A stretch of DNA of 31,199 nt from an uncultured Ideonella sp. (lineage in GTDB: Bacteria > Pseudomonadota > Gammaproteobacteria > Burkholderiales > Burkholderiaceae_C): positions 1-31,199 of the forward strand of contig CAZVNC010000001.1 in assembly GCA_964628305.1 (NCBI GenBank), given 5' to 3'. A model generated the notes under the pieces. It did no database searches, had not been told where the DNA came from, and worked only from the letters and a program-made list of their open reading frames with translations. This document shows, in pieces, positions 1,486 to 31,199 of this stretch. The stretch's first letter is position 1, and each line of letters opens with the position of its first letter. The position numbers were made by a program, and so were the translations under genes.

Positions 1486-2190
1486 TCACGAGGCAGTCAT
1501 CGACCGCGCGTCGAGCAAGACAGTGCGCAATACGGACTGCTTGACAAACGCTTCCCAGTGCGCGACGGCCTCGGGATGACCGAGGTCTTCGCCGAGGAAT
1601 GCCGACAGTGTGTAGCGGTTGGACTGGTAGAAGTAGCCCGTCGCCGCGATCAGCAGATAAACGTCGCGCGCCGCCACATCGGCGCGAAAGAGACCCTGGT
1701 CGACGCCGCTGCGCAGAACCTGTCCGACGACGCCGATCGCGGGCGAGGAGTACTCGCCGGCCCGACGCGACTTGCTGATGTGCCGGCCGCGGTGCAGGTT
1801 CTCGCTGTTGAGCAGCGTGACGAATTCGGGGTGCTCGCGGTAGTACGCCATCACGAAGGCGACGATCTCCAGCAGCGACTCGACCGGCCGTTCGTTGTCG
1901 AGTTCGAGCGCTGCCTCGGCCTCGTCGAATCGCCGGTAGGCCTCTTCGAGCACCGCGACGAACAGGCCTTCCTTGCTGCCGAAGTAGTAGTAGATCATCC
2001 GGTCGTAGGACTTGGCCGCCATCGAGATCTTCTCGACGCTGGCGCCGCTCAAGCCATACTTTGCGAAGATCTTCGTCGCCGCGCGCAGCAGGCTGTCGCG
2101 CGTCGCCTGCGCAGCGAGTTCGCGCACGCCCGGCTTGCGCGCCGTGCGCGGCCGGCTGCGTGAAGGACTCCTGGCGCTGCGGGGGGTCAT
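1486..2190 (-). CDS. TetR-family transcriptional regulator (NicS/RutR-like)
   Basis: TetR HTH: LLRAATKIFAKYGLSGASVEKISMAAKSYDRMIYYYFGSKEGLF. Start set at ATG 2190 (MTPRS) because the longer ORF start at 2256 overlaps the ferredoxin gene. Confidence 0.85.
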   Translation of the reverse strand: MTPRSARSPSRSRPRTARKPGVRELAAQATRDSLLRAATKIFAKYGLSGASVEKISMAAKSYDRMIYYYFGSKEGLFVAVLEEAYRRFDEAEAALELDNERPVESLLEIVAFVMAYYREHPEFVTLLNSENLHRGRHISKSRRAGEYSSPAIGVVGQVLRSGVDQGLFRADVAARDVYLLIAATGYFYQSNRYTLSAFLGEDLGHPEAVAHWEAFVKQSVLRTVLLDARSMTAS

Positions 2191-2221
2191 CGCCAAGCGC
2201 TCTAGGTGGTCGACGAAACCA

Positions 2222-2560
2222 TCAGGCCTTGTCGTCAGGCAGCTTGTAGTTGGCAAGCTTGTTCTTCTCGTCCTTCCAGCGATCGACTTCGGGCAGCGGA
2301 TCCTTGCTCGAGGAGAGCACCGGCCATTGCGGCGCGAAGCGCTTGTTGATGGCGAGAAAGACCTCCTGCCCGGCAGGCACGTCTTCCTCGGCGAAGATCG
2401 CCTCGACCGGGCACTCGGGGATGCATACGGCGCAGTCGATGCACTCGTCCGGATCGATGACGAGGAAGTCGGGGCCTTCGTGGAAACAATCGACCGGGCA
2501 GACGTCGACGCAGTCGGTGTATTTGCAAAGGATGCAGCTGTCGGTCACGACATGGGTCAT
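2222..2560 (-). CDS. fdxA: 7Fe ([3Fe-4S]/[4Fe-4S]) ferredoxin, Azotobacter FdI type
   Basis: MTHVVTDSCILCKYTDCVDVCPVDCFHEG...IDPDECIDCAVCIPECPVEAI is the FdxA signature. ATG at 2560 with GAGG upstream; the ORF-track extension to 2656 is unlikely. Confidence 0.92.
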   Translation of the reverse strand: MTHVVTDSCILCKYTDCVDVCPVDCFHEGPDFLVIDPDECIDCAVCIPECPVEAIFAEEDVPAGQEVFLAINKRFAPQWPVLSSSKDPLPEVDRWKDEKNKLANYKLPDDKA

Positions 2561-17056: not shown

Positions 17057-18775
17057 CTAGCTGAACCTGGTGCGTTGCAGGGCCTGTTGCGTGATCGCAC
17101 CCAACGTCACACGCGTCGAGATCACTTCGGGGGAGAGCTTGATCTCGATGAGCGTTCCTTGTTCCCTGCCGAGTGCGGCGCGCAACGCTTCCTTGAACTC
17201 GGCAGCGTCCTTCACCGGCTCCGCATGCATGCCGTAGGCACGCGCCAACGCGCAGAAGTCCGGATTGATCAGCGTCGTGCCGCTGACGCGCTGCGGATAC
17301 TCGCGCTCCTGATGCATTCGAATCGTGCCGTACATCCCGTTGTTGAGCAGCAGGACGATCAACTTGGCGCCGTGCTGAGCCGCGGTTGCCAGTTCCTGCC
17401 CGTTCATCAGGAAGTCGCCATCGCCGCTGATCGTGAACGCGACCCTTCCCGTCGTCAGGTTCGCCGCGACCGCGGCCGGAATGCCGTACCCCATCGCACC
17501 ATTGGTTGGCGCAAGCTGTGTCTTGTGGCCCTTTGCCAAACCGTGATAGCGGAAGTAGCGGTGCGTCCAGCTTGCAAAGTTGCCGGCACCGTTCGTCAAC
17601 ACCGCGTCGGCAGGCAGTTGGCGCTGCAGCTCGGCGACGATCGCGGGCATGTCGACGGAGCCTTCGCTCGTCGGGTCCAACCCGGGTAAGGCCTCCGGCA
17701 TCAGATTGGCATCGTAGTCCGCATGCACCGCCTGGGCCCAGGTCGCCCATCGCACTGCAGTCGGTGGCACCAAGTCCTGCAACGAGTGTGCCGCCGCGTC
17801 GGCGGTTGCACAGATCGCGAGGTCAGCCCGATAGACGCGGTGCAACTCGTCGGCACAGGGATGGATGTGCACCAGCTTTTGAGACGGCTGCGGCACCGTC
17901 AGCAAGGAGTAGCCGCTGGTCGTCATCTCACCGAGTCGGGCACCGATCGCGATCACGAGGTCGCAGTCGCGGATGGTCCGGGCGAGTTTCGGATTGATGC
18001 CGATGCCGACGTCGCCTGCATACAGCGCGTGATGGTTGTCGAAGATGTCCTGAAAGCGAAACGCATTGCCCACCGGCAGCTGCCACGCCTCGGCGAACGC
18101 CTGCAGCGCGCGTGCACCGTCAGGGCTCCAGCGCCCGCCTGCGATCACGAGCGGGCGTTCGGCCGCCTGCAGCAAGGCACCCAACTCTCGCACTGCGGAT
18201 GGGGCCAACCCGGCTTGCGAGACCTCCGCGCGGGGGAGTGGCTTTGCGTCGACGTGCTGGTGCAGCATGTCCTCCGGCAGCACCAGAACCACGGGCCCGG
18301 GGCGACCGTTCATCGCGGTGGCAAAGGCGCGGGAGATGTACTCCGGGATTCGCGTGGCATCGTCGATCCGTTCGACGCGCTTGGCCAGCCCCGTGGTGCT
18401 CGGGCCGAACATCGACGTGTACTCGATCTCCTGGAACGCCTCGCGGTGTCGGAAGTCAGCGCCGACGTCGCCGACGAGCAGCACCATCGGGGTGGAGTCC
18501 TGGAACGCCGTGTGGACGCCGATCGCCGCATTTGTCGCCCCCGGCCCCCGCGTGACGAGGCACACGCCCGGGCGTCCGGTGAGTTTGCCGTGCGCTTCGG
18601 CCATGAACGCTGCGCCGCCTTCCTGGCGGCAGGTGATGAAGCGGATCATGTCGCAGTGTTCGTGGAAGCCTTCGAGTACTGGCAGATAGCTCTCGCCGGG
18701 CACGCCGAAAGCGACCTCGACGCCTTGCGCGATCAGGCATTCCACGACCAGGCTGCCAGCCAATTTTGCGGTCAT
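17057..18775 (-). CDS. ThDP-dependent enzyme, acetolactate-synthase-like fold; substrate unknown
   Basis: FGVPGESYL, catalytic Glu in CRQEGGAAFMA, TRGPGATN, and the ThDP motif GDGDFLMNGQEL...NNGMYG. RBS GAAGGAG. No regulatory small subunit gene adjacent. Confidence 0.85.
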   Translation of the reverse strand: MTAKLAGSLVVECLIAQGVEVAFGVPGESYLPVLEGFHEHCDMIRFITCRQEGGAAFMAEAHGKLTGRPGVCLVTRGPGATNAAIGVHTAFQDSTPMVLLVGDVGADFRHREAFQEIEYTSMFGPSTTGLAKRVERIDDATRIPEYISRAFATAMNGRPGPVVLVLPEDMLHQHVDAKPLPRAEVSQAGLAPSAVRELGALLQAAERPLVIAGGRWSPDGARALQAFAEAWQLPVGNAFRFQDIFDNHHALYAGDVGIGINPKLARTIRDCDLVIAIGARLGEMTTSGYSLLTVPQPSQKLVHIHPCADELHRVYRADLAICATADAAAHSLQDLVPPTAVRWATWAQAVHADYDANLMPEALPGLDPTSEGSVDMPAIVAELQRQLPADAVLTNGAGNFASWTHRYFRYHGLAKGHKTQLAPTNGAMGYGIPAAVAANLTTGRVAFTISGDGDFLMNGQELATAAQHGAKLIVLLLNNGMYGTIRMHQEREYPQRVSGTTLINPDFCALARAYGMHAEPVKDAAEFKEALRAALGREQGTLIEIKLSPEVISTRVTLGAITQQALQRTRFS

Positions 18776-18950
18776 CGCAGAGACTCCTTCAAACTGAGGT
18801 GGTACGCGCCACGCGTGTTCGCAGCGCCCGAATCGAGGTGCCGGATTCGCAGTAGATGACGCCGATCAGGTGGGTGCTCGACGCCATCTGCGGTCTTCTT
18901 GCCGAAGACTGCCGACAATGGATGTTCGGGGAATGTCCCAAGTTCGTGAC

Positions 18951-18987
18951 GAGACATGTTGCGCTATAGTTAGTATACTATCAATCA
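18951..18987 (+). promoter_or_regulatory. Candidate sigma70 promoter of the DUF2848 gene overlapped by a palindromic operator
   Basis: GAGACA (18951-18956), 17-nt spacer, TATACT (18974-18979). Perfect palindrome TAGTATACTA (18971-18980) within ATAGTTAGTATACTATCAAT. RBS AAGGAG at 18993-18998. Confidence 0.6.
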
Positions 18988-19004
18988 AGCTAAAGGAGCT
19001 TCGG

Positions 19005-19709
19005 ATGAGTGATCTGCACACGCTGGATTTCGACTTCATCACCCAGCGCGAGACCGCGCATCGCACGACCACGATCGCGCGCGCCGTCATCGCCGGTTGG
19101 ACCGCGCGCGATGTGGCGGCCATGGAGCACCACATCGTCGAACTCGAGAAGATTGGCGTGCCGCGGCCTAAGCACACGCCGATGTTCTACCGCGTCGGAG
19201 CGCGCCGGATCACGACGGCGGACCGCATCGAGGCGGTTGGTGGGGACTCGTCGGGCGAGGCCGAGTTCGTGATCGTCAATGCTCACGGGCAGTTGTGGAT
19301 TGGCGTCGGGTCCGATCACACCGATCGAAAGGTCGAGACCTACGGCATCACGGTGTCCAAGCAGATGTGCGACAAGCCGGTGGCGCCGCAATTGTGGCTA
19401 CTGTCGGAGGTGGAGGCGCACTGGGATCGATTGCAACTGCATTCCGAAGTGAAGATTGATGGTCGCAGCAGCATCTATCAGGATGGCGCTGTCGCGTCGA
19501 TGCGCAGTCCTCGAGAGCTGATTTCGCTCTTCGAGCGCGACTACGGACCCTTCGGCGAAGGATCGCTGATGTTCTGCGGCACGCTCGCCGCGATCGGCGG
19601 CATCCGGCCCGCCGAGCGCTTCGAGTTCGCGTTGGTCGATCCGGTCTTCGAGCGGCGCATCGGGCACGCCTACGACGTGGCGATCCTTCCGATCGTCGAA
19701 GCCGAGTAG
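19005..19709 (+). CDS. DUF2848-family protein (FAH-like fold, function unknown)
   Basis: VIAGWTARD..AMEHHI.ELE.IGVPRP...P.FYRV, SSGEAE, GVGSDHTDRKVE, VSKQMCDKP, FCGT. ATG 19005 follows AAGGAG; the ORF-track extension to 18870 spans the promoter. Confidence 0.8.
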   Translation: MSDLHTLDFDFITQRETAHRTTTIARAVIAGWTARDVAAMEHHIVELEKIGVPRPKHTPMFYRVGARRITTADRIEAVGGDSSGEAEFVIVNAHGQLWIGVGSDHTDRKVETYGITVSKQMCDKPVAPQLWLLSEVEAHWDRLQLHSEVKIDGRSSIYQDGAVASMRSPRELISLFERDYGPFGEGSLMFCGTLAAIGGIRPAERFEFALVDPVFERRIGHAYDVAILPIVEAE

Positions 19710-19720
19710 AAGGGCGAGGC

Positions 19721-19746
19721 GCGAGAGGTACAACGCGACCTCTCGC
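19721..19746. terminator. Stem-loop between convergent DUF2848 and amidase genes
   Basis: GCGAGAGGT-N8-ACCTCTCGC, a 9-bp perfect stem in the 43-nt gap. Confidence 0.55.
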
Positions 19747-19752
19747 CAAAGA

Positions 19753-21123
19753 TCATCTGCGCAGAGCCTGGAGTGCCGCCTCGGCCTGCTCGGCAATCGC
19801 CAGCAGACGCCGGTCCTGACCCGGGGCGCCGATCAGCATCAGGCCAACCGGTGGATCGCCACGGCGATGAATCGGAATCGAGATTGCACAGCCGTCGAGA
19901 AAGTTGACGAACGCCGGATTGCGCAGCACGAGCAGATTGGTCTTGTTGCTGACCTCGGATTGCTCGAGCTCGTCGAGTCGGGGCGCGACGATGGGCACGG
20001 TCGGGCAGAGCAGCACATCGAATGCGCGCATCTTCGGGTGCACGATGTCGTGCATGCGCCGGCGCGCTTCGAGAACATCGATGTAGTCGGCGGCACACTG
20101 CGAACGCCCGGCATCGAATCTCTGAAGAACCCACGGGTCGTACAGCTCGGAACGCTGGTCCAGCAAAGGCCGATGCCAGGCGTATGCCTCGGCGCCGACC
20201 AGCCCGCCCTTCGAATTGATGCGTGGGATCTGCTGCAACTCGGGCAGCGACGCTTCCTTCAATTGCACACCGGCGCCGGAAAGCTCGCTCAGCGCTCTCT
20301 CGAAAGCGCCGGCGACCTCATCGTCCATTCCATCCGTCGCGTAGGCGCCGATCAGACCGGCACGAAGGCCCGGCAGATCAGGCGCGGAACGCGCCTGCTC
20401 GGCGTCTTGTGCACTCGCGTCCGCAATGATGGCGTCGATCGCTGCGCAACAAGCCACCGAATTGGCAAGCGGTCCGATCGAATCGAGGCTCGATGACAAG
20501 GGCACCGCACCCTCGCGAGGGACGCGCCGGGCCGTCGGTTTGAAGCCTGTGATGCCACACAGCGCAGCGGGAATGCGGCAGGAGCCACCGGTGTCGCTGC
20601 CCAATCCGAAGGGCACCATGCCGTCGGCAACCCCGACCGCGGCGCCGGACGATGAACCGCCGGGGATTCGGCCTTGCTCGCGCTGCCAGGGGTTGCGCGG
20701 CGTGCCGTAGTGCGCGTTGATGCCGAGGCCGGAGTAGGCGAATTCGGTCATGTTCGTGCGGCCGACGATCACGAATCCGGCCGCCCGCAGCCGGGCGACG
20801 GCAGGGGCGTCGACTGTGGCATGGGGACGTCCGGCCAACACGCGAGACCCGGCACGCGTCTCCTGTCCGGCGACGTCGAACAAGTCCTTGATCGAGATCG
20901 GAATGCCGGCATACGGGCTCGGCGCGGCGCCCGCCGCCCTGAGCCGATCAAACGCACCCGCGCTAGCGCGCGCGCCGTCGGCGAATACGCCGATGAACGC
21001 GCGTGCCCCTTCGCCCGCGGGATCGAGCATCCGATCCAGGCTGTCTTCGACGAGTGCACGACTGGTTGTTTCGCCGCGCGCCAGCGCACGTGCAGCGGCC
21101 TTCAGCGTCAGTGGCTCGCCCAT
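19753..21123 (-). CDS. Amidase-signature family hydrolase
   Basis: SIKDLF (catalytic Lys), GRTNMTEFAYSGLG, PGGSSSGAA, GSDTGGSCRIPAALCG (Ser-cisSer-Lys triad). Start at ATG 21123 (GAGG upstream) or GTG 21147. Confidence 0.88.
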   Translation of the reverse strand: MGEPLTLKAAARALARGETTSRALVEDSLDRMLDPAGEGARAFIGVFADGARASAGAFDRLRAAGAAPSPYAGIPISIKDLFDVAGQETRAGSRVLAGRPHATVDAPAVARLRAAGFVIVGRTNMTEFAYSGLGINAHYGTPRNPWQREQGRIPGGSSSGAAVGVADGMVPFGLGSDTGGSCRIPAALCGITGFKPTARRVPREGAVPLSSSLDSIGPLANSVACCAAIDAIIADASAQDAEQARSAPDLPGLRAGLIGAYATDGMDDEVAGAFERALSELSGAGVQLKEASLPELQQIPRINSKGGLVGAEAYAWHRPLLDQRSELYDPWVLQRFDAGRSQCAADYIDVLEARRRMHDIVHPKMRAFDVLLCPTVPIVAPRLDELEQSEVSNKTNLLVLRNPAFVNFLDGCAISIPIHRRGDPPVGLMLIGAPGQDRRLLAIAEQAEAALQALRR

Positions 21124-21143
21124 ATCGTGCCTCGTCGTTTCCT

Positions 21144-21524
21144 TCACTGCGGATCGTAGTAGTGCATCTCGATCAGCAGCGCTCCGCCTTCGGAGCGGAA
21201 CGGACCGTGCCAGACGCCCGGCGGCCTGACTGCGTACGTGTTAGCGGCGAACTTCTCGCCCCCGGTGCCGTCCACTTCGCTGCTGACCCAGAGGTCGCCG
21301 CTCACGATGAAGACCTCTTCCCAGTAGTCGTGGATGATCTTCTCGGTGGTGAACGAACCTGGCGCCCAGCGCAGCAGCCGCGTGTGCCCGCCGCGCCGAT
21401 TCTCGCGATCCAGCGTACCAGAGATGATCTTCTGCTGAACGCCGGGCGGGAAGCCGGCAGGGGTCTCCCAGCCCGATTCCATGTCGACCTGATAGAACTC
21501 GCGATGCAGTCTGTTGACGGCCAT
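21144..21524 (-). CDS. Small cupin-domain protein (ChrR-like)
   Basis: 126 aa with cupin motifs HDYWEEVFIVSGDL and RPPGVWHGPF. Strong RBS GAAAGGAGAG before ATG 21524. Confidence 0.78.
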   Translation of the reverse strand: MAVNRLHREFYQVDMESGWETPAGFPPGVQQKIISGTLDRENRRGGHTRLLRWAPGSFTTEKIIHDYWEEVFIVSGDLWVSSEVDGTGGEKFAANTYAVRPPGVWHGPFRSEGGALLIEMHYYDPQ

Positions 21525-21550
21525 TTCAAACTCTCCTTTCTCGGTTGTGA

Positions 21551-22870
21551 TCAGTCCTTGACCCGGGCGAGGCTGATGCCGCGCACGAATCCTTTCTCGA
21601 ACTTGTCCGTTTCGAACACGCTCTCGGGGATCTGGTAATAGTCGCCCGAGGCTTGCTGCTCGGCCGTGTTGCCGTACATGTGGATCGAATCGAACGGACA
21701 AGTCTGGGTGCACAGCTCGCAGCCGATGCAGTTGTGGTACAGCTCGCCCACCGTGGCGTCCTCGGCCTGGCGCAGCGCGTCGTAGAAGCAGGTCTGGATG
21801 CAGATCGTGCAGGTCGGGTTCTTGCAGGTGGCGTCCCTAACCTCGACGTGCATGCGGTCCTTGCGGAACTGCTCGCCGTAGTCCTTCACCGAGCGGCGCG
21901 ACGCGATGCCGAGCATCGATTCGATGTCATCGTAGCCGTGGTCGTCCATGAAGGCGTCCAGGCCGTCGATGATCTTGGGCAGGAACTTGATGCCCTTGAG
22001 CATCAGCACCGAGCCCACCTGCACCAGCGGCGCGCCGGCCATGATGAACTCGACGATGTCGCGGTGGTCGTAGACGCCGTTCGAGCCGGTGATCGGGATG
22101 CCGAGCTCGGTGTAGATGCGGTGGACCCAGCGCAGCGAGAGCGGCTTGGCCCAGACCCCGCCGATGCCGGCCGGGCCGCCGAGCCGCGGCGAGCCGGTTT
22201 CGATGTCGATCGAGAAGCCGGTGTACCTGTTGGTCGCGGTCACTGCCGAGGCTCCGGCCGCCTTCACTGCGCGCGCGACCTCGAGCACCGGAGACTGGTC
22301 TGGTGTGAGCTTGATGATGACCGGAATCTTCACCGCCTCGCAGACCCGCCGCGTGATCTCGGCGGCCACATCGGGCACCTGCCCGATCATGCTGCCGCCG
22401 TGGGTGCCGGGCATCATTGCCGGGTGCGGGCAGCCGAAGTTGAGTTCGACCATTGGCAGGCCGCAGTCCTCGATCGTGCGGCAGATGTCGACCCAGCTCT
22501 GTACGGTCTTGCCGCCTGCGCTACCGATCAGGTGCGAGCCACGATCCGCGGCGTACTTCTGCAGATCCTTGAGGTACGGTATCCACTCCCGCAACGGTGT
22601 GGACGAATAGCCGGAGCGGCTATAGAAGACGAAGTTCTTGTTGACCTTGCCCTTGATCGGCTCGTTCTTCTCGTTGAGGATCGCGTACTTCGAGTTCTGC
22701 GTCAGCCGCGCCATGTCCTCGATGTCGGTCAATGTTTTGATGATCATGCCGCCGGCGCCGGCGTCGACGCACTCGCGGATCACCTCGGGGCTGTTGGTCG
22801 TCTCGATCGATGCGATGACGACCGGGTTCTTGAACTTGACACCACAGAATTCGAGAGCCAGGTTTGCCAT
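21551..22870 (-). CDS. PreA/dihydropyrimidine-dehydrogenase-like FMN protein with C-terminal 2x[4Fe-4S] domain
   Basis: F.GVKFKNP..IAS, IIKT, ELNFGCPH (catalytic Cys loop), IIKLTP, TATN, GGP...KPLSL, ITGSNGV, VQVGS. C-terminal CKNPTCTICIQTC and CIGCELCTQTCP. RBS AGGAG. Confidence 0.82.
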   Translation of the reverse strand: MANLALEFCGVKFKNPVVIASIETTNSPEVIRECVDAGAGGMIIKTLTDIEDMARLTQNSKYAILNEKNEPIKGKVNKNFVFYSRSGYSSTPLREWIPYLKDLQKYAADRGSHLIGSAGGKTVQSWVDICRTIEDCGLPMVELNFGCPHPAMMPGTHGGSMIGQVPDVAAEITRRVCEAVKIPVIIKLTPDQSPVLEVARAVKAAGASAVTATNRYTGFSIDIETGSPRLGGPAGIGGVWAKPLSLRWVHRIYTELGIPITGSNGVYDHRDIVEFIMAGAPLVQVGSVLMLKGIKFLPKIIDGLDAFMDDHGYDDIESMLGIASRRSVKDYGEQFRKDRMHVEVRDATCKNPTCTICIQTCFYDALRQAEDATVGELYHNCIGCELCTQTCPFDSIHMYGNTAEQQASGDYYQIPESVFETDKFEKGFVRGISLARVKD

Positions 22871-22932
22871 GTCTGCAATCTCCTAGGAAGGTTGGTCGTT
22901 CTGCGTGACGGTACGGCGTCACCCCGCTCACT

Positions 22933-22969
22933 CAATTGTTAGTATACGAACGATTGGCGCGCCGGTCAA
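22933..22969 (-). promoter_or_regulatory. Near-consensus sigma70 promoter for the preA-like/cupin/amidase operon, overlapped by a palindromic operator
   Basis: On the minus strand: TTGACC (22969-22964), 17 nt, TATACT (22946-22941). The imperfect 24-bp palindrome CAATTGTTAGTATACGAACGATTG (22933-22956) is centred on the -10 box. Confidence 0.75.
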
Positions 22970-22984
22970 CCCGGAGCGCAAAGC

Positions 22985-24307
22985 TCATCGCTTGATCGCC
23001 ATCTGGTCCGGCAGCCAGGTCACGAGCTCGGGAAACAGATAGATCACTCCGACGAACAGCAGGAGGATCACGAAAAACGGAAAGGCGGCTTTCGTGACGA
23101 AGCCGATGTCGCGCTTCGTCATGCTCTGCAGCACGAAGAGGTTGAAGCCGACCGGCGGCGTGACCTGTGCCATCTCGACGACGATCACGACGTAGATGCC
23201 GAACCACAGCAGATCGAACTGCGCCGCGGTCACCATCGGCAACAGGACGGCCATCGTCAGTAGCACCATCGAAATACCGTCGAGCAGGCAGCCGAGAACG
23301 AGGTAGAGCAGGGTGATCGCAAGCAGCAGCTGTCCCTGCGACAGCCCCAGTTGCCCAACCCACTCCGCGAGCGCCATCGGGATACCGGTGAATCCCATCG
23401 CGATCGTGAGGAACGACGATCCAGCCAGAATCAGCATGATCATGGTCGTTGTCTTCATCGCACCCATCACCGTGGCGACAAAGGTTCGCCAACTGAATCC
23501 GCCCTGCACGACCGACAGAATCAACGCGCCGAGCACGCCGACCGCTGCGGATTCGGTCGCCGTGGCGATGCCGGCATAGATCGAGCCCAGTACGGCAACG
23601 ATCAGCAGGACCGTCGGCACGAGGTCGGCGCTGGCCTTGAGTTTGCCCAGAAAACTCACCCGCAGGTCGTTTACCGGGATGCGGTCGGCATTGATGATCG
23701 ACCAGGCGCCGACATAGGCCATGAACAGTGCGGCCAGCAGCAGCCCTGGAATCACGCCGGCGATGAAGAGCTTGTTGATCGACACGTCGGCCGTCACGCC
23801 GTAGACGATCATGATGATCGACGGCGGTATCAGCAGCCCCAGAGTGCCGGCGCCCGCCAGCGAGCCGACGACCATCTCGATCGGATAGCCGCGCTTGTTC
23901 AGCTCCGGCATCGTCATCTTTCCTATCGTCGCGCAGGTCGCCGCCGACGAGCCAGAGATGGCCGCGAAGATCGCGGAGCCGACGACGTTGACCTGCATCA
24001 GCCGGCCGGGCAAAGGCGCCATCCATGGCGCCAAGCCGCGAAACATGTACTCAGAGATCCGGGATCGAAACAGGATCTCGCCCATCCAGATGAACAGCGG
24101 CAGCGAGGTCAGCGTCCAACTCGTGAGCGACCCGAAGATCGTCGTCGCCATCGCTTCGCCGGGCATGCGCGTCGAGTACATCAAGGTCGCGACCAGGCCC
24201 ACGCCCAGCAGCGCAAGCCCGATCCAGACCCCGATGCCCAGCAGCAGGAACATCGCACCGATGATCGCAGCCGCGAGCAGCGGCCCCTGAAGTTCAGCGG
24301 TCGGCAC
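22985..24307 (-). CDS. dctM: TRAP transporter large permease
   Basis: LPLFIWMGEIL, FAAISGSSAAT, GTLGLLIPPSI, LFIAGVIPG, ATATESAA, LGCLLDG, TPPVGFNLFV. Start set at GTG 24307 (GGAGG 7 nt upstream, overlapping the dctQ end); uncertain. Confidence 0.88.
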   Translation of the reverse strand: MPTAELQGPLLAAAIIGAMFLLLGIGVWIGLALLGVGLVATLMYSTRMPGEAMATTIFGSLTSWTLTSLPLFIWMGEILFRSRISEYMFRGLAPWMAPLPGRLMQVNVVGSAIFAAISGSSAATCATIGKMTMPELNKRGYPIEMVVGSLAGAGTLGLLIPPSIIMIVYGVTADVSINKLFIAGVIPGLLLAALFMAYVGAWSIINADRIPVNDLRVSFLGKLKASADLVPTVLLIVAVLGSIYAGIATATESAAVGVLGALILSVVQGGFSWRTFVATVMGAMKTTTMIMLILAGSSFLTIAMGFTGIPMALAEWVGQLGLSQGQLLLAITLLYLVLGCLLDGISMVLLTMAVLLPMVTAAQFDLLWFGIYVVIVVEMAQVTPPVGFNLFVLQSMTKRDIGFVTKAAFPFFVILLLFVGVIYLFPELVTWLPDQMAIKR

Positions 24308-24812
24308 GGCCCACCTCCACATCTCCATGCTGCGCTTGGACCGCCGCCCCGCCCCAGACGCGCACGGCACGCTCGGCGACCGCTGCGAAGAAGGCGACTG
24401 CACCGAACGCCATCGCCCCTTGCGGAATCCAAATCGGCAGTGCGATCAAGCCCGAGCTGCGCTCGTCGAGCTGCCAAGATACCCAGGCGAGCTTGCAGAA
24501 GTGCCAGGCCAGATAGCCGCCCAGCGCCGCGGCGATCGTTACCGCGACGCGCTCCAGTACGCTGCGCACCGAAGGCGACACGTGCTCCAGGACCAGCGTG
24601 ACCCGGATGTGTTCGTCGTTCACGAACGTGTAGGCCAGCGCGAGGAAGGCCGAGGCACCCATGAAGTAGCCCGCGAACTCATCGGCCGAGCGCGGGATGT
24701 AGGGCGCGAACTGCCCGCCGAGCTGGTACAGGATCATCACCTCGATGGCGACGAAGCTGAGCGCGCCCAGAAAGGCGGATGCCCCGATGATCAAGCGCAG
24801 CACGGCGTTCAT
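24294..24812 (-). CDS. dctQ: TRAP transporter small permease
   Basis: 172 aa, four hydrophobic segments, ADEFAGY, FLALAYTF...EHIRVTL, IWIPQ. Lies between dctP and dctM. Confidence 0.85.
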   Translation of the reverse strand: MNAVLRLIIGASAFLGALSFVAIEVMILYQLGGQFAPYIPRSADEFAGYFMGASAFLALAYTFVNDEHIRVTLVLEHVSPSVRSVLERVAVTIAAALGGYLAWHFCKLAWVSWQLDERSSGLIALPIWIPQGAMAFGAVAFFAAVAERAVRVWGGAAVQAQHGDVEVGRADR

Positions 24813-24854
24813 CCTGCAGGCCCCCTGGCGATTCGCCGATGTATCGATCCGCGT

Positions 24855-25832
24855 CTACTTCCGGTAGGCCTCGACCAGCGCCTTGCCGTCCGGCCCCGCC
24901 GTGGCGAGCCATTCGTCGACGAGTTGCTTGCCGATCTGGTTGAAGTCGGCAGCGAGCTTGGGTGAAGGCGGCAGAACTTTCATGCCGTGCTCGGAGAGCA
25001 CCTTCTTCGTCGCGTCGGCGACTTGCTCGCTCGCCGCCCAGCCCGCCTCCTCGGCCTTCTTCGCCTCGGCAAGCACCGCGTCCTGGGTCGCCTTGTCGAG
25101 CGCATTGAACGCGGCCTTGTTGACGATCACCATGTTCTTGGGCAGCCAGGCCTGCACATCGTAGAAGTACTTCAGCGACTCCCAGGCCTTGTAGTCGACG
25201 GCTGACTGCGCCGACGACATCAGCGAGTTGATCTTGCCAGTCGCGAGCGCCTGCGCCACCTCGGCGGCCTGGATCGTGACCGGGCGCGCCTTGACGAGCT
25301 CGCCGATACGGGAAGTCTGTTTGTCGTAGGCGCGGAAGTTCAGGCCTTCCAGATCGGCGGCCGACTGCACCTCCTTCGCGGTGATCAGGCCCTGCGGAGG
25401 CCATGGCACGGCAAACAGCAGGCGCATGCCCTGCGCGTCGAGCGCCTTCTCGATATACGGCCGCTGCACGGTCCAGAGCTTCTTCGCGTCGGCGTAGCTC
25501 GTCGCCAGAAACGGCAGGCCATCGACGGCGTAGAGCGGATTCTCGTTGACGAGCGTGACCATCAGCACCTCGCCGATCGGCACCTGCCCGGTCTGGACGG
25601 CGCGCTTGATCTCCGGCATCTTGTACAGCGACGCCCCCGAATGAACCTTCAGGACGAACTTGCCGCCGGTCGCCTGCTTGACCCCGGCTGCGAAGCGGTC
25701 GATGTTCTGGGTGTGGAAGTTGGTCGGCGCGTACGGCGTTGGCATGTCCCAGCTCTGCGCGTGTGCAGCACCGGGAAAGATCGCAATTGCAGCCGCAGCG
25801 GCGATGGAGGCAGTGAGCTTCGACATGTGCAT
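24855..25832 (-). CDS. dctP: TRAP transporter substrate-binding protein
   Basis: Signal peptide (AAHAQ), WDMPTPY, IKRAVQTGQVPIGE, DGLPFLA, WPPQGL, DLEGLNFRAY (conserved Arg), PKNMVIVN. ATG 25832 follows AAAGGA. Confidence 0.88.
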   Translation of the reverse strand: MHMSKLTASIAAAAAIAIFPGAAHAQSWDMPTPYAPTNFHTQNIDRFAAGVKQATGGKFVLKVHSGASLYKMPEIKRAVQTGQVPIGEVLMVTLVNENPLYAVDGLPFLATSYADAKKLWTVQRPYIEKALDAQGMRLLFAVPWPPQGLITAKEVQSAADLEGLNFRAYDKQTSRIGELVKARPVTIQAAEVAQALATGKINSLMSSAQSAVDYKAWESLKYFYDVQAWLPKNMVIVNKAAFNALDKATQDAVLAEAKKAEEAGWAASEQVADATKKVLSEHGMKVLPPSPKLAADFNQIGKQLVDEWLATAGPDGKALVEAYRK

Positions 25833-25854
25833 TGGAGATCCTTTCGTGGTGGGG

Positions 25855-26451
25855 TCAGACAAGTTGCTTGGAGTCGGCGTTCGATCCGGAGAGCCTTTGA
25901 CCTTGCGGACGCAACGCCGTTCGGCCGTACACGTTGTTCGCTTCGACCAGGTCATGCAGCAGTTGCATGAACATCGTCCGCTCGCCCTCATCCAGCGGCG
26001 CGAGGAGGCGCTTCTGCGCCTCCTGCATGCGCGGGTAGATACGGGCGACGAGTTCGGCCCCCTCGCGGCTGGCCAGGCAGAGCTTGCGGCGCCTGTTGTG
26101 CGGATCGACGACGCGGGCGACAAGCTTGCGCGACTCGAGGCGCTTCAACACATCGTGGACGTTGGCCCGGTCGATGCCGAGTTCCTCGGCGACCGAGAAC
26201 TGATCCAGCCCCGGCATGTCGACGAGGATGCTCATCAGGCCGTACTGCACCGGCGTCATGCCGTACTCCTCGAGCACCTCCATGAACATCGAGACATGGA
26301 TCTGGTGCAGGCGTCGGACGAGGAACCCCGGGCGCGCCCAGAGCGAGGTGTGCTCGCGCATGCGAAACGCATTCTGATCCGCCTTCGCCTGGGCTCGGCG
26401 GACGGCGCTGATGTCGGCCGCGCTCTTGCGTCGTAGCGAAGGCTTGCTCAT
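25855..26451 (-). CDS. MarR-family transcriptional regulator
   Basis: RPGFLVRRLHQ, MTPVQYGLM, LDQFSVAEELGIDRANVHDVLKRLESRKLVAR, DPHNRRRK. Start uncertain (ATG 26451 chosen). Confidence 0.87.
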   Translation of the reverse strand: MSKPSLRRKSAADISAVRRAQAKADQNAFRMREHTSLWARPGFLVRRLHQIHVSMFMEVLEEYGMTPVQYGLMSILVDMPGLDQFSVAEELGIDRANVHDVLKRLESRKLVARVVDPHNRRRKLCLASREGAELVARIYPRMQEAQKRLLAPLDEGERTMFMQLLHDLVEANNVYGRTALRPQGQRLSGSNADSKQLV

Positions 26452-26486: not shown

Positions 26487-27622
<1,136 letters not shown>

Positions 27623-27626
<4 letters not shown>

Positions 27627-28450
27627 GCCAGGATGTCCTCGAGGGCACGGCGCAGCATCGCCCGGCAGGCCTGCTGCCGCGCCGGTGGGGCGCCGTGCAG
27701 CGCGGGGCGGCAGGCGAGGTCGAGTTGCTCTTCGCTCAGCGCCTCGCGTCCGTTGCGCGCGATGTCGCCGGCCAGCCCGGCAAGCGCCGTCGGCCGGCCG
27801 GCGGGCGTGCCGATGAAAACCCGGGCGACGCGTCGCGGCGGATCGAGCAGCACCGCGACGGCAGCCTCGGCGAACTCGCCCGGTTTGCGGCAGAACTTGC
27901 GATAGGACCACCGCGCCTGCGCCGACAGCCGGGGCCAGTGCACCGCGGTGAGCAACTCCGCGGGCTGGAGCGCCGTGACATAGGCGCCCGACATGAACGC
28001 ATCGGCGGCGACGCGCCTTGTCCCCGAGCGGCCCTGAATCTCGATGCTGGCGCCCCAGGTCGCTGCGATCAGCGGCCAGTCGCCCGCCGGGTCGGCATGC
28101 GCGAGGCTGCCGCCGACCGTGCCGCGGTTGCGAATCGCGCGGTAGGCGATGCCGCGCGCCGCGTGGGCGAGCGGCTCAAGGCCGGAGATCGCGTTCGCGC
28201 GATCCTCGAACCAGGCGTGCGTCGTGCAGGCGCCGATGCGCACGGCGGCGTCGGCCTCGTCGACTTTGGTCAGCGCGTCGATCGCCGAAATGTCGATCAG
28301 CCGCGCCGGACGCACCAGGCGCAGGTTGAGCATCGGCCCGAGCGACTGCCCGCCGGCGACAACCTTTGATTCGACCTCGGCGTCTCCCAGCGCGTCGAGC
28401 GCCTCGGCGATCGAGCGCGCCTTCATATAGTCGAAACGCGCCGGCTTCAC
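27623..28450 (-). CDS. Mo-hydroxylase FAD-binding medium subunit (CoxM/CutM-like)
   Basis: MKPARFDY, VAGGQSLGPMLNLRL, IRNRGTVGGSLAHADPAGD. GTGA overlap with the large-subunit stop. Confidence 0.88.
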
Positions 28451-30855
28451 GATCCGGCTCCCGGCGCCGCAGGGCCGGCTGCCATCGCCGCAAGGAGCCG
28501 CGCCGGAGTCAACGGTGTCTGCGACAACTCGGCGGCGCGGCCGCGCAGCGCGTCGTTGACGGCGTTGAAGATCGCTGCCGGGGGCGCGATCGCACCGCCT
28601 TCACCCATGCCCTTGATGCCGAACTTAGTGTACGGCGACGGTGTCTCGGAGTGGTGGATCCGGATCGGCGGCGACTCGGTCGCGCCCGGCATGATGTAGT
28701 CCATCAGCGTCGACGCGAGCGGCTGGCCGTTCGCGTCGTAGGGCGACTCCTCGTAGAGGGCGGTGCCGATGCCCTGCACCACGCCGCCAATCGTCTGCCC
28801 TTCGACGATCATCGGGTTGACCATCGTGCCGCAGTCCTCGCTGATCACGTAGTCGAGCAGCTCGACCGACCCGGTGCGCGGATCCACGGCGACGACCACC
28901 GCGTGCGACGCGTAGCTGAACACGCCGGTGTCGATCTTGGGCCGGTGCGAGACGCTGACCTCCAGGCCGCCGCGATCGACGTCCTTGGGCAGCCGCTCGG
29001 GCCGCACGAACCAGGCCTGTGCAACATCGCGAATCGATACCTCGCCCGCCGGCCCCACGACCCGCCCCGATTCGAAGCGAGCCTCCTGCTCGCCGCAGCC
29101 GAGCAGCGCCGCGCCGATGCGCAGCAGCCGCGGCACGAGCGCCTCGCAGGCCTCGGCGACCGCGCCTCCGGCCATCACGATGCTGCGCGACGCGTAGGTT
29201 CCGGTCGAGAATGGCGTCGTTCCGGTGTCGCCATGCACGACGCGGATGCGTGCGACGTCGACGCCAAGCACCTGGTGAGCGACCTGCGCCAGCGTCGTCT
29301 CCATGCCCTGGCCGTGCGAGTGCACGCCGACGCAGAGTTCCAGTCCGCCGTCGGGCGTCACGCGCACCGTCGCCTGGTCGTAGCCCGGAACGAGCGGCAG
29401 GCCCCACGACGCGAACACCGATGTGCCGTGCGCCGACTGCTCGCAGTAGCTCGCGAAGCCGACGCCGATCAGCCTGCCGTCGTTCTCGCCGCGGCGCTGG
29501 CGCTCGCGCACCGCATCGAGGCCGATCGCATCGACCACCCATTCGAGGCTGCGCGGATAGTCGCCGCTGTCGTAGTGCTTGCGCGCCACGTTGTTGTAGG
29601 GCATCTGCTCGGGCCGGATCAGGTTCTCGGCGCGCACCTGCCACGGCTCGCGGCCGACCTCGCGCGCGATGGCGTCGATCAGCAATTCGATCGCGAAGCA
29701 CACGCCGGTGCGCGCGACGCCGCGATACGGCAGGAAGCCGGGCTTGTTCGTCGCGACGCACCACGTCTTGGCGCGATAGCCGGCGATCGCGTAGGGGCCG
29801 GGCAGGTTGCCGGTCGCCTGCCCGGGCTCGAGGCCGACGGTGAACGGCCAGTTCGAGTACGCGCCGCCGTCGATCGTGATCTCGGCGTCGAGCGCGAGCA
29901 GCCGGCCGCGATCGTCGACGTGCGCCGCGAGCCGGTAGTGGTGCTGGCGCGTGTTCGCCGCCGCGACCAGGTGCTCGCGCCGGTCCTCGACGTAGCGAAA
30001 CGGCGTGCGATAGCGCAGTGCGAGCCACGCGACGCAAAGCTCTTCGGGCTGGAGCACGCACTTGTAGCCGAACGCGCCGCCGACGTCGGGCGCGATGATG
30101 CGCAGCTTGCGCTCCTCGATCCCCAGGCACTGCGCCAGGCCGACGCGGATCATGTGCGGCACCTGCGTCGAGCTGTAGACGATCAACTGGTCGGCGCGCT
30201 CGTCCCAGTAGGCGACGATGGCCTTGCCTTCCATCGGATTCATCGCCTGGCGCGCGAGCGAGATCTCGCGCCGCACAATCCGCGTCGCGCGCGCTGCCTG
30301 CTCGTCGAAACTGTTGTCGTAGGCGAGCGAGAGAAAGAGGTTGTCGCGCCATTCGTCGTGCACGCGCACGCCGGGCTCGGCGAGCGCGCGGTGCGCGTCG
30401 ACCAGCGCCGGAAGCGGCTCGATGCGCAGATCGATCTCCTCGGCAAGATCCTCGGCCATCGCGCGTGTGGGCGCGACGCACATCGCGACCGGCTCGCCGA
30501 CGAAGCGCACCTTGCCCGATGCGAGCGCGTGATGCTCCGAGACCTGATAGCTTGGCAGCGTCGAGGTTGCGACGATCGGCTTCAGGCCTTCCAGATCGTC
30601 ATTTACGAACACCCGACCTTCCGATCCGGACGGCTTGGCTATGGCGACGATGCGGCCATGCGCGATCGGGCTGCGCAGGAACGCCACCTCCTGCTGACCC
30701 GGCAGCAGCATGTCCGATACATACTGGCCGCGGCCGCGCATCAGCCGCGCGTCTTCCTTGCGCGGCATGCGCGCGCCTATGCCCTGCTTCCGATCGTCCA
30801 TCGGGTCGTGGTTCACGGTGTCGCTGCCATCGGCGCTTGCTGGATCCGGCTTCAT
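28447..30855 (-). CDS. Xanthine-oxidase-family Mo-hydroxylase large subunit (CoxL/CutL-like, not a CO dehydrogenase)
   Basis: RKEDARLMRGRGQY, STQVPH, VGGAFGYK, active-site loop PYRGVAR, HGQGMETT, TYASRS, GGVVQGIG..LYE, KGMGEGG (catalytic Glu). Confidence 0.88.
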   Translation of the reverse strand: MKPDPASADGSDTVNHDPMDDRKQGIGARMPRKEDARLMRGRGQYVSDMLLPGQQEVAFLRSPIAHGRIVAIAKPSGSEGRVFVNDDLEGLKPIVATSTLPSYQVSEHHALASGKVRFVGEPVAMCVAPTRAMAEDLAEEIDLRIEPLPALVDAHRALAEPGVRVHDEWRDNLFLSLAYDNSFDEQAARATRIVRREISLARQAMNPMEGKAIVAYWDERADQLIVYSSTQVPHMIRVGLAQCLGIEERKLRIIAPDVGGAFGYKCVLQPEELCVAWLALRYRTPFRYVEDRREHLVAAANTRQHHYRLAAHVDDRGRLLALDAEITIDGGAYSNWPFTVGLEPGQATGNLPGPYAIAGYRAKTWCVATNKPGFLPYRGVARTGVCFAIELLIDAIAREVGREPWQVRAENLIRPEQMPYNNVARKHYDSGDYPRSLEWVVDAIGLDAVRERQRRGENDGRLIGVGFASYCEQSAHGTSVFASWGLPLVPGYDQATVRVTPDGGLELCVGVHSHGQGMETTLAQVAHQVLGVDVARIRVVHGDTGTTPFSTGTYASRSIVMAGGAVAEACEALVPRLLRIGAALLGCGEQEARFESGRVVGPAGEVSIRDVAQAWFVRPERLPKDVDRGGLEVSVSHRPKIDTGVFSYASHAVVVAVDPRTGSVELLDYVISEDCGTMVNPMIVEGQTIGGVVQGIGTALYEESPYDANGQPLASTLMDYIMPGATESPPIRIHHSETPSPYTKFGIKGMGEGGAIAPPAAIFNAVNDALRGRAAELSQTPLTPARLLAAMAAGPAAPGAGS

Positions 30856-30876: not shown

Positions 30877-31199
30877 TCAACGCGTCTTCCCACCAGGGGA
30901 CGCAGCCGGATCGGCTGGTGCGCCGAAGGGATCAAGGGAGTGGTCGGGGTCGTCGGCCTGGTGCGGTACCTCGATGCGGACCTTGTCCAGATCGACCTCC
31001 TTGTGCTTCTCCAGGTTGCCGGTCACGAGCCCCGGAAACGCGATCACCAGCCCCACCATCACCAACTGAATGATCACGAACGGTATCGCGCCGCGATAGA
31101 TGTCGGCGGTCTTGATCGACTTGTCAGCAACCGACCGCAGGTAGAACAGCGCAAAGCCGAAAGGCGGGTGCATGAACGAGGTCTGCATGTTCACCGCCA
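30877..31199 (-). CDS. dctM: Second TRAP large permease, C-terminal fragment (5' partial)
   Basis: AVNMQTSFMHPPFGFALFYLRSVA...IYRGAIPFVIIQL..VGLVIAFPGLV, a DctM C-terminus. Runs off the window edge; stop is 21 nt before the large-subunit start. Confidence 0.8.
   Translation of the reverse strand, partial: AVNMQTSFMHPPFGFALFYLRSVADKSIKTADIYRGAIPFVIIQLVMVGLVIAFPGLVTGNLEKHKEVDLDKVRIEVPHQADDPDHSLDPFGAPADPAASPGGKTR

Follow-up and report, generated by a model that had tools for sequence, protein, structure and literature searches.

Conserved palindromes in a catabolic gene cluster of an uncultured Ideonella sp. as candidate operators of a local MarR-type repressor

INTRODUCTION

In the genome of an uncultured Ideonella sp., two copies of one AT-rich palindrome lie in front of two oppositely oriented transcription units, the gene of the orphan family DUF2848 and an operon encoding a PreA-like reductase, a cupin and an amidase. 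This arrangement raises the question of whether a single repressor controls both units, and of which protein that repressor would be. The stretch of DNA analysed here (hereafter the window, 31,199 nt, 67% G+C and ~33% A+T) is the whole of contig C1 in an assembly of 705 contigs (3.25 Mb, 69% G+C, 72% completeness). It encodes one MarR-family protein, which we call MarR1 (Table 1). An earlier note, made from the letters of the window, had proposed that this local MarR represses both units through palindromes overlapping their promoters, and that DUF2848, perhaps together with the neighbouring gene of a thiamine diphosphate (ThDP)-dependent enzyme, belongs with the reductase operon to one system.

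Here we describe four strong sites of this kind, conserved among relatives and predicted to be operators, at three promoter regions of one catabolic super-cluster. Comparison of the related loci makes it probable that these sites are operators of a local pathway-specific repressor, for which MarR1 is the most likely candidate.

RESULTS

Two palindromes overlap two predicted promoters

Re-reading of the sequence confirmed the two 24-mers and their reported identity of 17/24 on the same strand, which becomes 18/24 when site 1 is compared with the reverse complement of site 2. Self-complementarity is 20/24 for site 2 and 16/24 for site 1. As had been noticed, both are AT-rich islands in GC-rich DNA (75% and 67% A+T, against ~33% for the window). 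The 10-mer GTTAGTATAC, common to the two sites, has three occurrences on both strands of the 3.25-Mb assembly, two of which are the window sites, and GTTNGTATACNAWC, at no more than one mismatch, gives 4 strand-hits in the window where 0.01 would be expected from shuffles. Sites with the longer core GTTnGTATACnAWC number four in the assembly, two in the window and two on contig C86. For scoring, a 22-nt position weight matrix (PWM) was derived from 6 orthologous sites of 3 congeneric genomes; the window sites score 38-40 (39.8 for site 1) and the genome background ~14 or less. The consensus of the 6 orthologous sites is symmetric and has the size expected of a pseudo-palindromic operator (~16-24 bp). 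The operator is most likely a palindrome of ~22 bp, ATnGTTnGTA.TACnAACnAT, which a putative dimer would bind.

The third copy of the 10-mer (C238:155) was rejected as an operator, as it holds the left half only (PWM 13.7) and the orthologous place in genomes G001 and G002 is without it. A small conserved gene has its start codon right behind this copy (L001, contig C238, 1-178); the product has 127 aa in relatives, a helix-turn-helix-like N-terminus and no Pfam match. TATACT lies 9 nt 5′ of the ATG there, which hints at a leaderless transcript.

A consensus scan of positions 18700-23200 for sigma70-like sites returned only two promoters, each with its TATACT inside a palindrome and with a 17-nt spacer (Table 1), so that the -10 and -35 elements reported earlier were found again at both sites. 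Transcription is predicted to begin near 18986 on the plus strand and near 22934 on the minus strand. The TATACT of site 2 reads on the minus strand, which is the strand of the PreA-like operon; behind site 1, DUF2848 has the ribosome-binding site AAGGAG, followed by ATG at 19005. Overlap of operator and promoter, as in MarR systems, is thereby seen at both window sites by the consensus scan, and the -35 TTGAC is conserved.

Some hints of transcription come from RNA-library contigs. The window sequence is frequent in sludge and bioreactor metagenomes, and six RNA libraries have contigs that contain it. Depth in runs X16 and X17 was ~10 on PreA-cupin-amidase versus 0-3 on dctMQP, a step that fits an internal promoter, with the reservation that DNA carry-over is possible and that RNA-library contigs may include DNA. 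One contig from the RNA library of run X18 begins at 18979, which is weak evidence, as contig ends do not define transcription starts.

Further copies at the head of the MarR1 operon

The last gene of the window, a fused dctQM, runs off its end. The 3′ end of contig C86 (L009 8254-8308) is the reverse complement of window 31145-31199 over 55 identical bases, and the dctQM reading frame runs on across the joint; thus, C86 supplies the head of the operon, and the cluster extends over ~8 kb of that contig. The head itself is a divergent region of ~430 nt. On one side of it lie the genes for a 7Fe ferredoxin, an aldehyde:ferredoxin oxidoreductase (AOR), a MoaD-like protein, a second MarR protein and an FNR-like reductase; on the other side are a solute-binding protein (SBP) gene, dctQM and the rest of the operon. 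A CoA-transferase gene is also part of the C86 segment.

Upstream of the tripartite ATP-independent periplasmic (TRAP) transporter/molybdenum (Mo) hydroxylase operon, further copies of the consensus had been predicted, and a scan of the whole assembly placed them exactly in this region: the two on C86 are the only strong PWM matches outside the window, and the next best anywhere scores ~14. Because C86 joins the end of the window, the MarR1 gene sits in a transcription unit headed by the same operators. Autoregulation is therefore indicated at the level of sequence, by the C86 sites heading the MarR1 operon and by sites directly upstream of marR in loci L014 and L040.

Directly beside each of the C86 operators there is a second inverted repeat, AGGGAnnACCCTA (L009 5113-5125 and 5233-5245), which recurs in G011 (L020 4946-4958) and, in weaker form, in G001, and which may be the site of a second regulator. 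A similar element, GGGGAATGTCCCA, occurs at 18927-18939 of the window, where operator 1 begins ~25 nt further downstream. G001 has kept this element too, and it may likewise be the site of a second regulator.

Conservation of the sites among relatives

The congeneric genomes G001 and G011 keep the entire locus, with both window sites at the same positions and with diverged intergenic flanks. Site 1 is found at the same place in these two genomes and is degenerate in L013; the ThDP-DUF2848 gap of G011 is only 83 nt long and contains the operator. The ferredoxin/TRAP region has one site in G001 and three in G011, there on a contig joined to the main contig of G011 by a 77-nt overlap. Site 2, the one that precedes the PreA-like gene, has been retained at 8 independent loci.

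When the other 400 genomes sampled from the GTDB family were searched for MarR1 orthologues, there were 0 matches at E 1e-35 or better, so the MarR1 cluster is rare in that family; homologues were instead obtained via look-ups of metagenome proteins and contigs. The set comprises 15 loci with a MarR1 homologue, some of them cut from contigs of 56-408 kb. Orthologues of ~70% identity are encoded at five further distinct loci, L011 (Ramlibacter sp.), L012-L014 (Burkholderiales metagenome-assembled genomes) and L015 (a metagenome contig); a sixth record of this kind, L016, is a 2.1-kb fragment without a site.

In an alignment of 7 gaps before the PreA-like gene (A1), conservation is confined to the start codon, the ribosome-binding site, the operator core and TTGAC. 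The last of these, the -35 element, does not vary at all, and the core GTT[CA]GTA[TC]ACT..C follows 17 nt downstream. These phylogenetic footprints, together with the overlap with promoters, support the proposal that the sites would act as promoter-overlapping operators. A weaker operator-like element, CGTGTACTAACTG, was seen in the gap preceding the PreA-like gene, ~125 nt further upstream than the main site, in L011 (10656; A1 columns 91-104) and also in L015, L013, L012 and G001; it is missing in the window, where the gap is just 114 nt.

It might be supposed that all this conservation belongs to promoter elements (-35 TTGAC, -10 TATACT), to chance resemblance or to an RNA hairpin, with no repressor involved, as the most conserved bases include the -10 hexamer. 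However, conservation is symmetric beyond the -10, taking in GTT on its upstream side and AAC on the other, the palindrome is also present in the C86 region, away from any consensus promoter, and the chance expectation for the motif in the window is 0.01; we regard an explanation of this kind as very improbable. Folding gave no reason to keep the hairpin, since the sites fold no better than shuffles (z 0.30 to -1.45), and a dispersed repeat or mobile element was rejected on the grounds that there are only four copies, all at cluster promoters.

Comparison also bears on the membership of the two genes around site 1. In the window, the ThDP gene is divergent from DUF2848 and co-directional with the PreA-cupin-amidase operon, and its start lies ~190 nt from operator 1. 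In L011 and L034, the amidase gene is followed directly on its own strand by DUF2848 and then by the ThDP gene, with a 4-nt DUF2848/ThDP overlap in L034; in the genus of the window and in L013, DUF2848 points the other way, behind a separate promoter that bears an operator. The co-directional order in these other genomes, which we consider the best evidence on this point, assigns DUF2848 and the ThDP enzyme to the PreA-cupin-amidase unit, and the claim of a single system was in this respect upheld.

MarR1 as the likely reader of the palindromes

Of the regulator genes at the 15 loci, only that of MarR1 is found with the motif every time: each locus encodes a MarR winged-helix protein within the cluster or next to it, and no other regulator family recurs in the loci examined. 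As judged from this constancy, the local MarR is the probable link between the sites, as the earlier note had it. The TetR gene of the window (1486-2256) was rejected as regulator, being part of the window's other half and missing from every related locus.

The association persists through rearrangement. In L014, two sites lie between a ferredoxin gene and MarR, beside a different hydroxylase (30% identical); in L012, MarR has been relocated beside the PreA-like gene, with a site between the two. L034 (64% identity) has a window-like architecture with sites in both regions, and in L040 (68%) a site precedes MarR by 39 nt and the PreA-like gene has TTGACG-17-TACACT in front of it. In L035-L038 (54-58%), MarR is divergent from a dctP-hydroxylase unit and heads a PreA-hydantoinase A/B operon, with palindromes of the type AATTGTTAG-N4-CTAACAATT, and in L039 (62%) MarR and the PreA-like gene diverge across the perfect palindrome AATCAGTATACTGATT. 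Thus, related palindromes accompany MarR1 homologues down to 54% identity and in rearranged clusters. At a PWM threshold of at least 20, four of the six distant loci L035-L040 have 1-3 matches each, and L038 and L039, whose palindromes are more divergent, have none; block-shuffled controls gave 0.003-0.05 such matches per locus.

Helix alpha1 of MarR1 (GFLVRRLHQIHV) hardly varies among 16 homologues, and neither does the winged helix-turn-helix. Those few changes that affect the recognition helix (position 99 H/A/G; position 100 D/G) go with operator variants, and this apparent covariation is only a hint, as it comes from a small sample of related sequences.

The PreA-like gene is present at 14/15 of the MarR1-homologue loci; in the exception, L014, the contig ends right after the MarR gene. 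In L035-L038 and L040, hydantoinase A/B (oxoprolinase-like) genes come after the PreA-like gene and replace the cupin-amidase-DUF2848-ThDP set. MarR1 and the PreA-like reductase are thus the invariant pair in the distant clusters, and the exchange of the genes downstream of this pair suggests interchangeable lactam-opening modules.

Could the second MarR protein read the palindromes instead? This protein, MarR2, is the NicR/BpsR-like MarR of C86 (Table 1); it is encoded in the ferredoxin-AOR operon divergent from the operator-bearing region in G000, G011 and G432, and it is close to BpsR (E 2e-48). The conserved inverted repeat AGGGAnnACCCTA beside the C86 operators further suggests that two proteins may act there. 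On this reading, MarR2 would bind the palindromes and MarR1 would read another element. Nevertheless, the genomes of L013 and L014, whose completeness is not known and where the motif stands beside MarR1, yielded no MarR2 orthologue; in G429 a MarR2 homologue is on another contig with no motif within 1.5 kb, and L035-L040 have no MarR2 within 8 kb. Given this distribution, we think the exchange of roles quite improbable.

The shape of the operator brings in another family. GntR/FadR repressors bind a T.GT..AC.A core, and TAGTATACTA and TAGTATACGA of the window sites fit this core, centred on GTATAC, as are the footprints of the GntR-type repressor DipR such as GATAGTATACCG (PMC11472048). With an assembly that is 72% complete, a GntR gene encoded elsewhere in the genome could have gone unsampled. 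However, there is no GntR gene in the window, on C86 or at 14 related loci, the assembly scan revealed no site beyond the cluster that could belong to an autoregulated GntR gene, and the symmetric conserved positions reach +/-10 bp. In distant lineages, moreover, it is the centre that varies (GTAGGC, GTACGC) and the outer TTAG/CTAA arms that persist. A GntR/FadR protein as reader of the sites is, on these counts, unlikely.

Several observations weigh against MarR1 as the repressor. Incompleteness of the assembly would allow a trans-acting regulator, and the divergent operon of C86 encodes the second MarR, of NicR/BpsR type. Operators with GTATAC at the centre are typical of the GntR/FadR family, to which DipR belongs (PMC11472048), and the operator of PcaV, the closest solved relative of MarR1, is of a different type, TCAG-N4-CTGA (PMC3616709). 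The promoter scan found no consensus promoter around the C86 operators, and an RNA-library contig of run X16 spans site 2 and ends at 23005 rather than at the predicted start.

Gene content of the cluster

The features discussed above are collected in Table 1. The longest open reading frame (ORF) of the cupin overlaps the 3′ end of the PreA-like gene by ~160 nt (21551-21713), and conservation with relatives begins near residue 57; hence, the true cupin start is probably near 21540. As to DUF2848, no solved structure was matched by sequence and no paper mentioning the family was found in the literature search. Its neighbours in an ESM Atlas feature search include clusters with FAA_hydrolase (PF01557) and with '2-keto-4-pentenoate hydratase', and a fumarylacetoacetate-hydrolase-like fold may be taken as a lead.

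Table 1. Positions of candidate operators, predicted promoters and genes (window coordinates unless L009 is given for contig C86)
Feature	Position	Strand	Remarks
Operator copy 1	18964-18987	none	Core GTTAGTATACTATC at 18969-18982; in the 229-nt ThDP-DUF2848 gap
Operator copy 2	22933-22956	none	Core GTTAGTATACGAAC at 22938-22951; in the 114-nt dctM-PreA-like gap
C86 strong operators	L009 5091-5112 and 5211-5232		PWM ~21-34
C86 weak operator	L009 5289		From PWM
DUF2848 promoter, predicted sigma70-type	18951-18979	+	GAGACA-17-TATACT; -10 inside operator 1
PreA-cupin-amidase promoter, predicted sigma70-type	22969-22941	-	TTGACC-17-TATACT; -10 inside operator 2
ThDP-dependent enzyme, acetolactate-synthase-like, 572 aa	17057-18775	-	Pfam and NCBIfam PRK08199
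DUF2848 (234 aa)	19005-19709	+	Pfam PF11010, E 1e-77; convergent with the amidase gene
Amidase-signature amidase	19753-21147	-	
Cupin	21144-21713	-	Pfam Cupin_7
PreA-like reductase	21551-22870	-	Dihydroorotate dehydrogenase (DHODH) fold plus 4Fe-4S domain
TRAP transporter genes	22985-25901	-	dctP 24855 to ~25900, dctQ 24294-24812, dctM 22985-24403
MarR-family regulator (MarR1)	25855-26451	-	Pfam MarR, MarR_2; embedded in a long operon
Three-subunit Mo hydroxylase	26487-30855	-	
Mo hydroxylase 2Fe-2S plus CoxG subunit	26487-27911	-	
Mo hydroxylase FAD subunit	27623-28450	-	
Mo hydroxylase large subunit	28447-30855	-	
Fused dctQM, 3′ end	30877-31197	-	Continues on contig C86
Second MarR (MarR2)	L009 2112-2555	-	End of the ferredoxin-AOR operon diverging from the main operon; BpsR/NicR relative (6PCP, E 2e-48)

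DISCUSSION

Data from the window, from C86 and from related loci can be put together in a simple model. A dimer of MarR1 would sit on the ~22-bp palindrome, cover the -10 TATACT and block RNA polymerase at the promoters of DUF2848 and of PreA-cupin-amidase. Two further strong operators would serve the divergent ferredoxin-AOR/TRAP promoter region on C86, which heads the SBP-dctQM-Mo hydroxylase-MarR-dctPQM operon, and through them MarR1 would repress its own synthesis. The effector, imported by the TRAP systems, would be either a carboxylated substrate (aromatic or N-heterocyclic) or the product of its hydroxylation; on entering the conserved Arg/His pocket of helix alpha1, it would release the repressor, and the whole cluster would be switched on together. 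Binding, repression, autoregulation and the nature of the effector are all inferred in this model.

PcaV of Streptomyces coelicolor, a protocatechuate-responsive MarR protein (PDB 4FHT/4G9Y), is the best match to MarR1 among solved structures (E 5e-20), followed by BpsR/NicR (E 4e-16). The catabolic cluster under PcaV control has ~20-bp palindromic operators at more than one place, the promoter of PcaV itself among them, and an aromatic carboxylate releases this repressor (PMC3616709). The layout of several palindromic operators in a catabolic cluster, the promoter of the regulator among them, is the one proposed here, and both proteins have the RRLxQxH stretch of helix alpha1 in common. They differ in operator (TCAG-N4-CTGA against GTTnGTA.TACnAAC), in phylum and in pathway, and the MarR1 gene is embedded in a long operon and not divergent from its target. 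Our literature search found no published MarR operator like GTTnGTA.TACnAAC. Analogy with PcaV (PMC3616709) suggests an aromatic or heteroaromatic carboxylate as the effector of MarR1, an idea that fits the cluster because it contains two TRAP importers.

NicR/BpsR (PDB 6PCP/6PCO), which responds to 6-hydroxynicotinate, offers a precedent, as a MarR repressor whose target cluster serves the breakdown of an N-heterocycle and encodes a molybdenum hydroxylase. Arg26 and His32 of BpsR, which hold 6-hydroxynicotinate, align with conserved residues of MarR1, whereas His23 aligns with Phe (PMC6837509). MarR1 is, however, a distant match to this protein and is matched better by PcaV, so that orthology of MarR1 with NicR/BpsR was not borne out; the true NicR-like protein here is MarR2.

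In Alcaligenes faecalis, a member of the Burkholderiales, DipR of the GntR/FadR family has GWATAC sites in the dipicolinate cluster, at six promoters (PMC11472048). A single repressor whose several GTATAC-centred operators cover every promoter of a catabolic cluster for a pyridine carboxylate is a close parallel in layout, but DipR is of another protein family and the present cluster has no GntR gene. The pathway is different, too: the dip pathway begins with a monooxygenase and is reported as not needing molybdenum cofactor (PMC11472048).

A sequence-delimited regulon of ~20 genes at three promoter regions emerges from the distribution of the sites. Its predicted members are the ferredoxin-AOR unit, the TRAP-Mo hydroxylase-MarR-TRAP operon, the PreA-cupin-amidase unit, DUF2848 and probably the ThDP gene, so that an orphan family and a stand-alone ThDP enzyme are tied to one catabolic unit. 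Picolinate catabolism reportedly has a MarR regulator as well, PicR.

The regulatory logic is conventional for MarR-controlled catabolic clusters, and the value of the present findings lies in annotation and in a handle on an uncharacterised pathway and on DUF2848. A defined pair of operator and repressor, in which binding is inferred, would offer a route to the substrate of the pathway by ligand screening or with a reporter. With some hesitation, since we hold it somewhat less probable than its opposite, we suggest that this MarR and its operator define the regulon of a pathway not yet described and common among Burkholderiales of wastewater, in which a carboxylated N-heterocycle would be hydroxylated and reduced and the lactam then opened. 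If this is true, the invariant core of the pathway would consist of MarR, the PreA-like reductase and, usually, the Mo hydroxylase with its TRAP importer, and the ring-opening module would be interchangeable, with cupin, amidase, DUF2848 and ThDP enzyme in one set of loci and ATP-dependent hydantoinase A/B in other loci. In that case, the effector specificity of MarR1 as a sensor would be new, and DUF2848 would for the first time be placed in a functional context.

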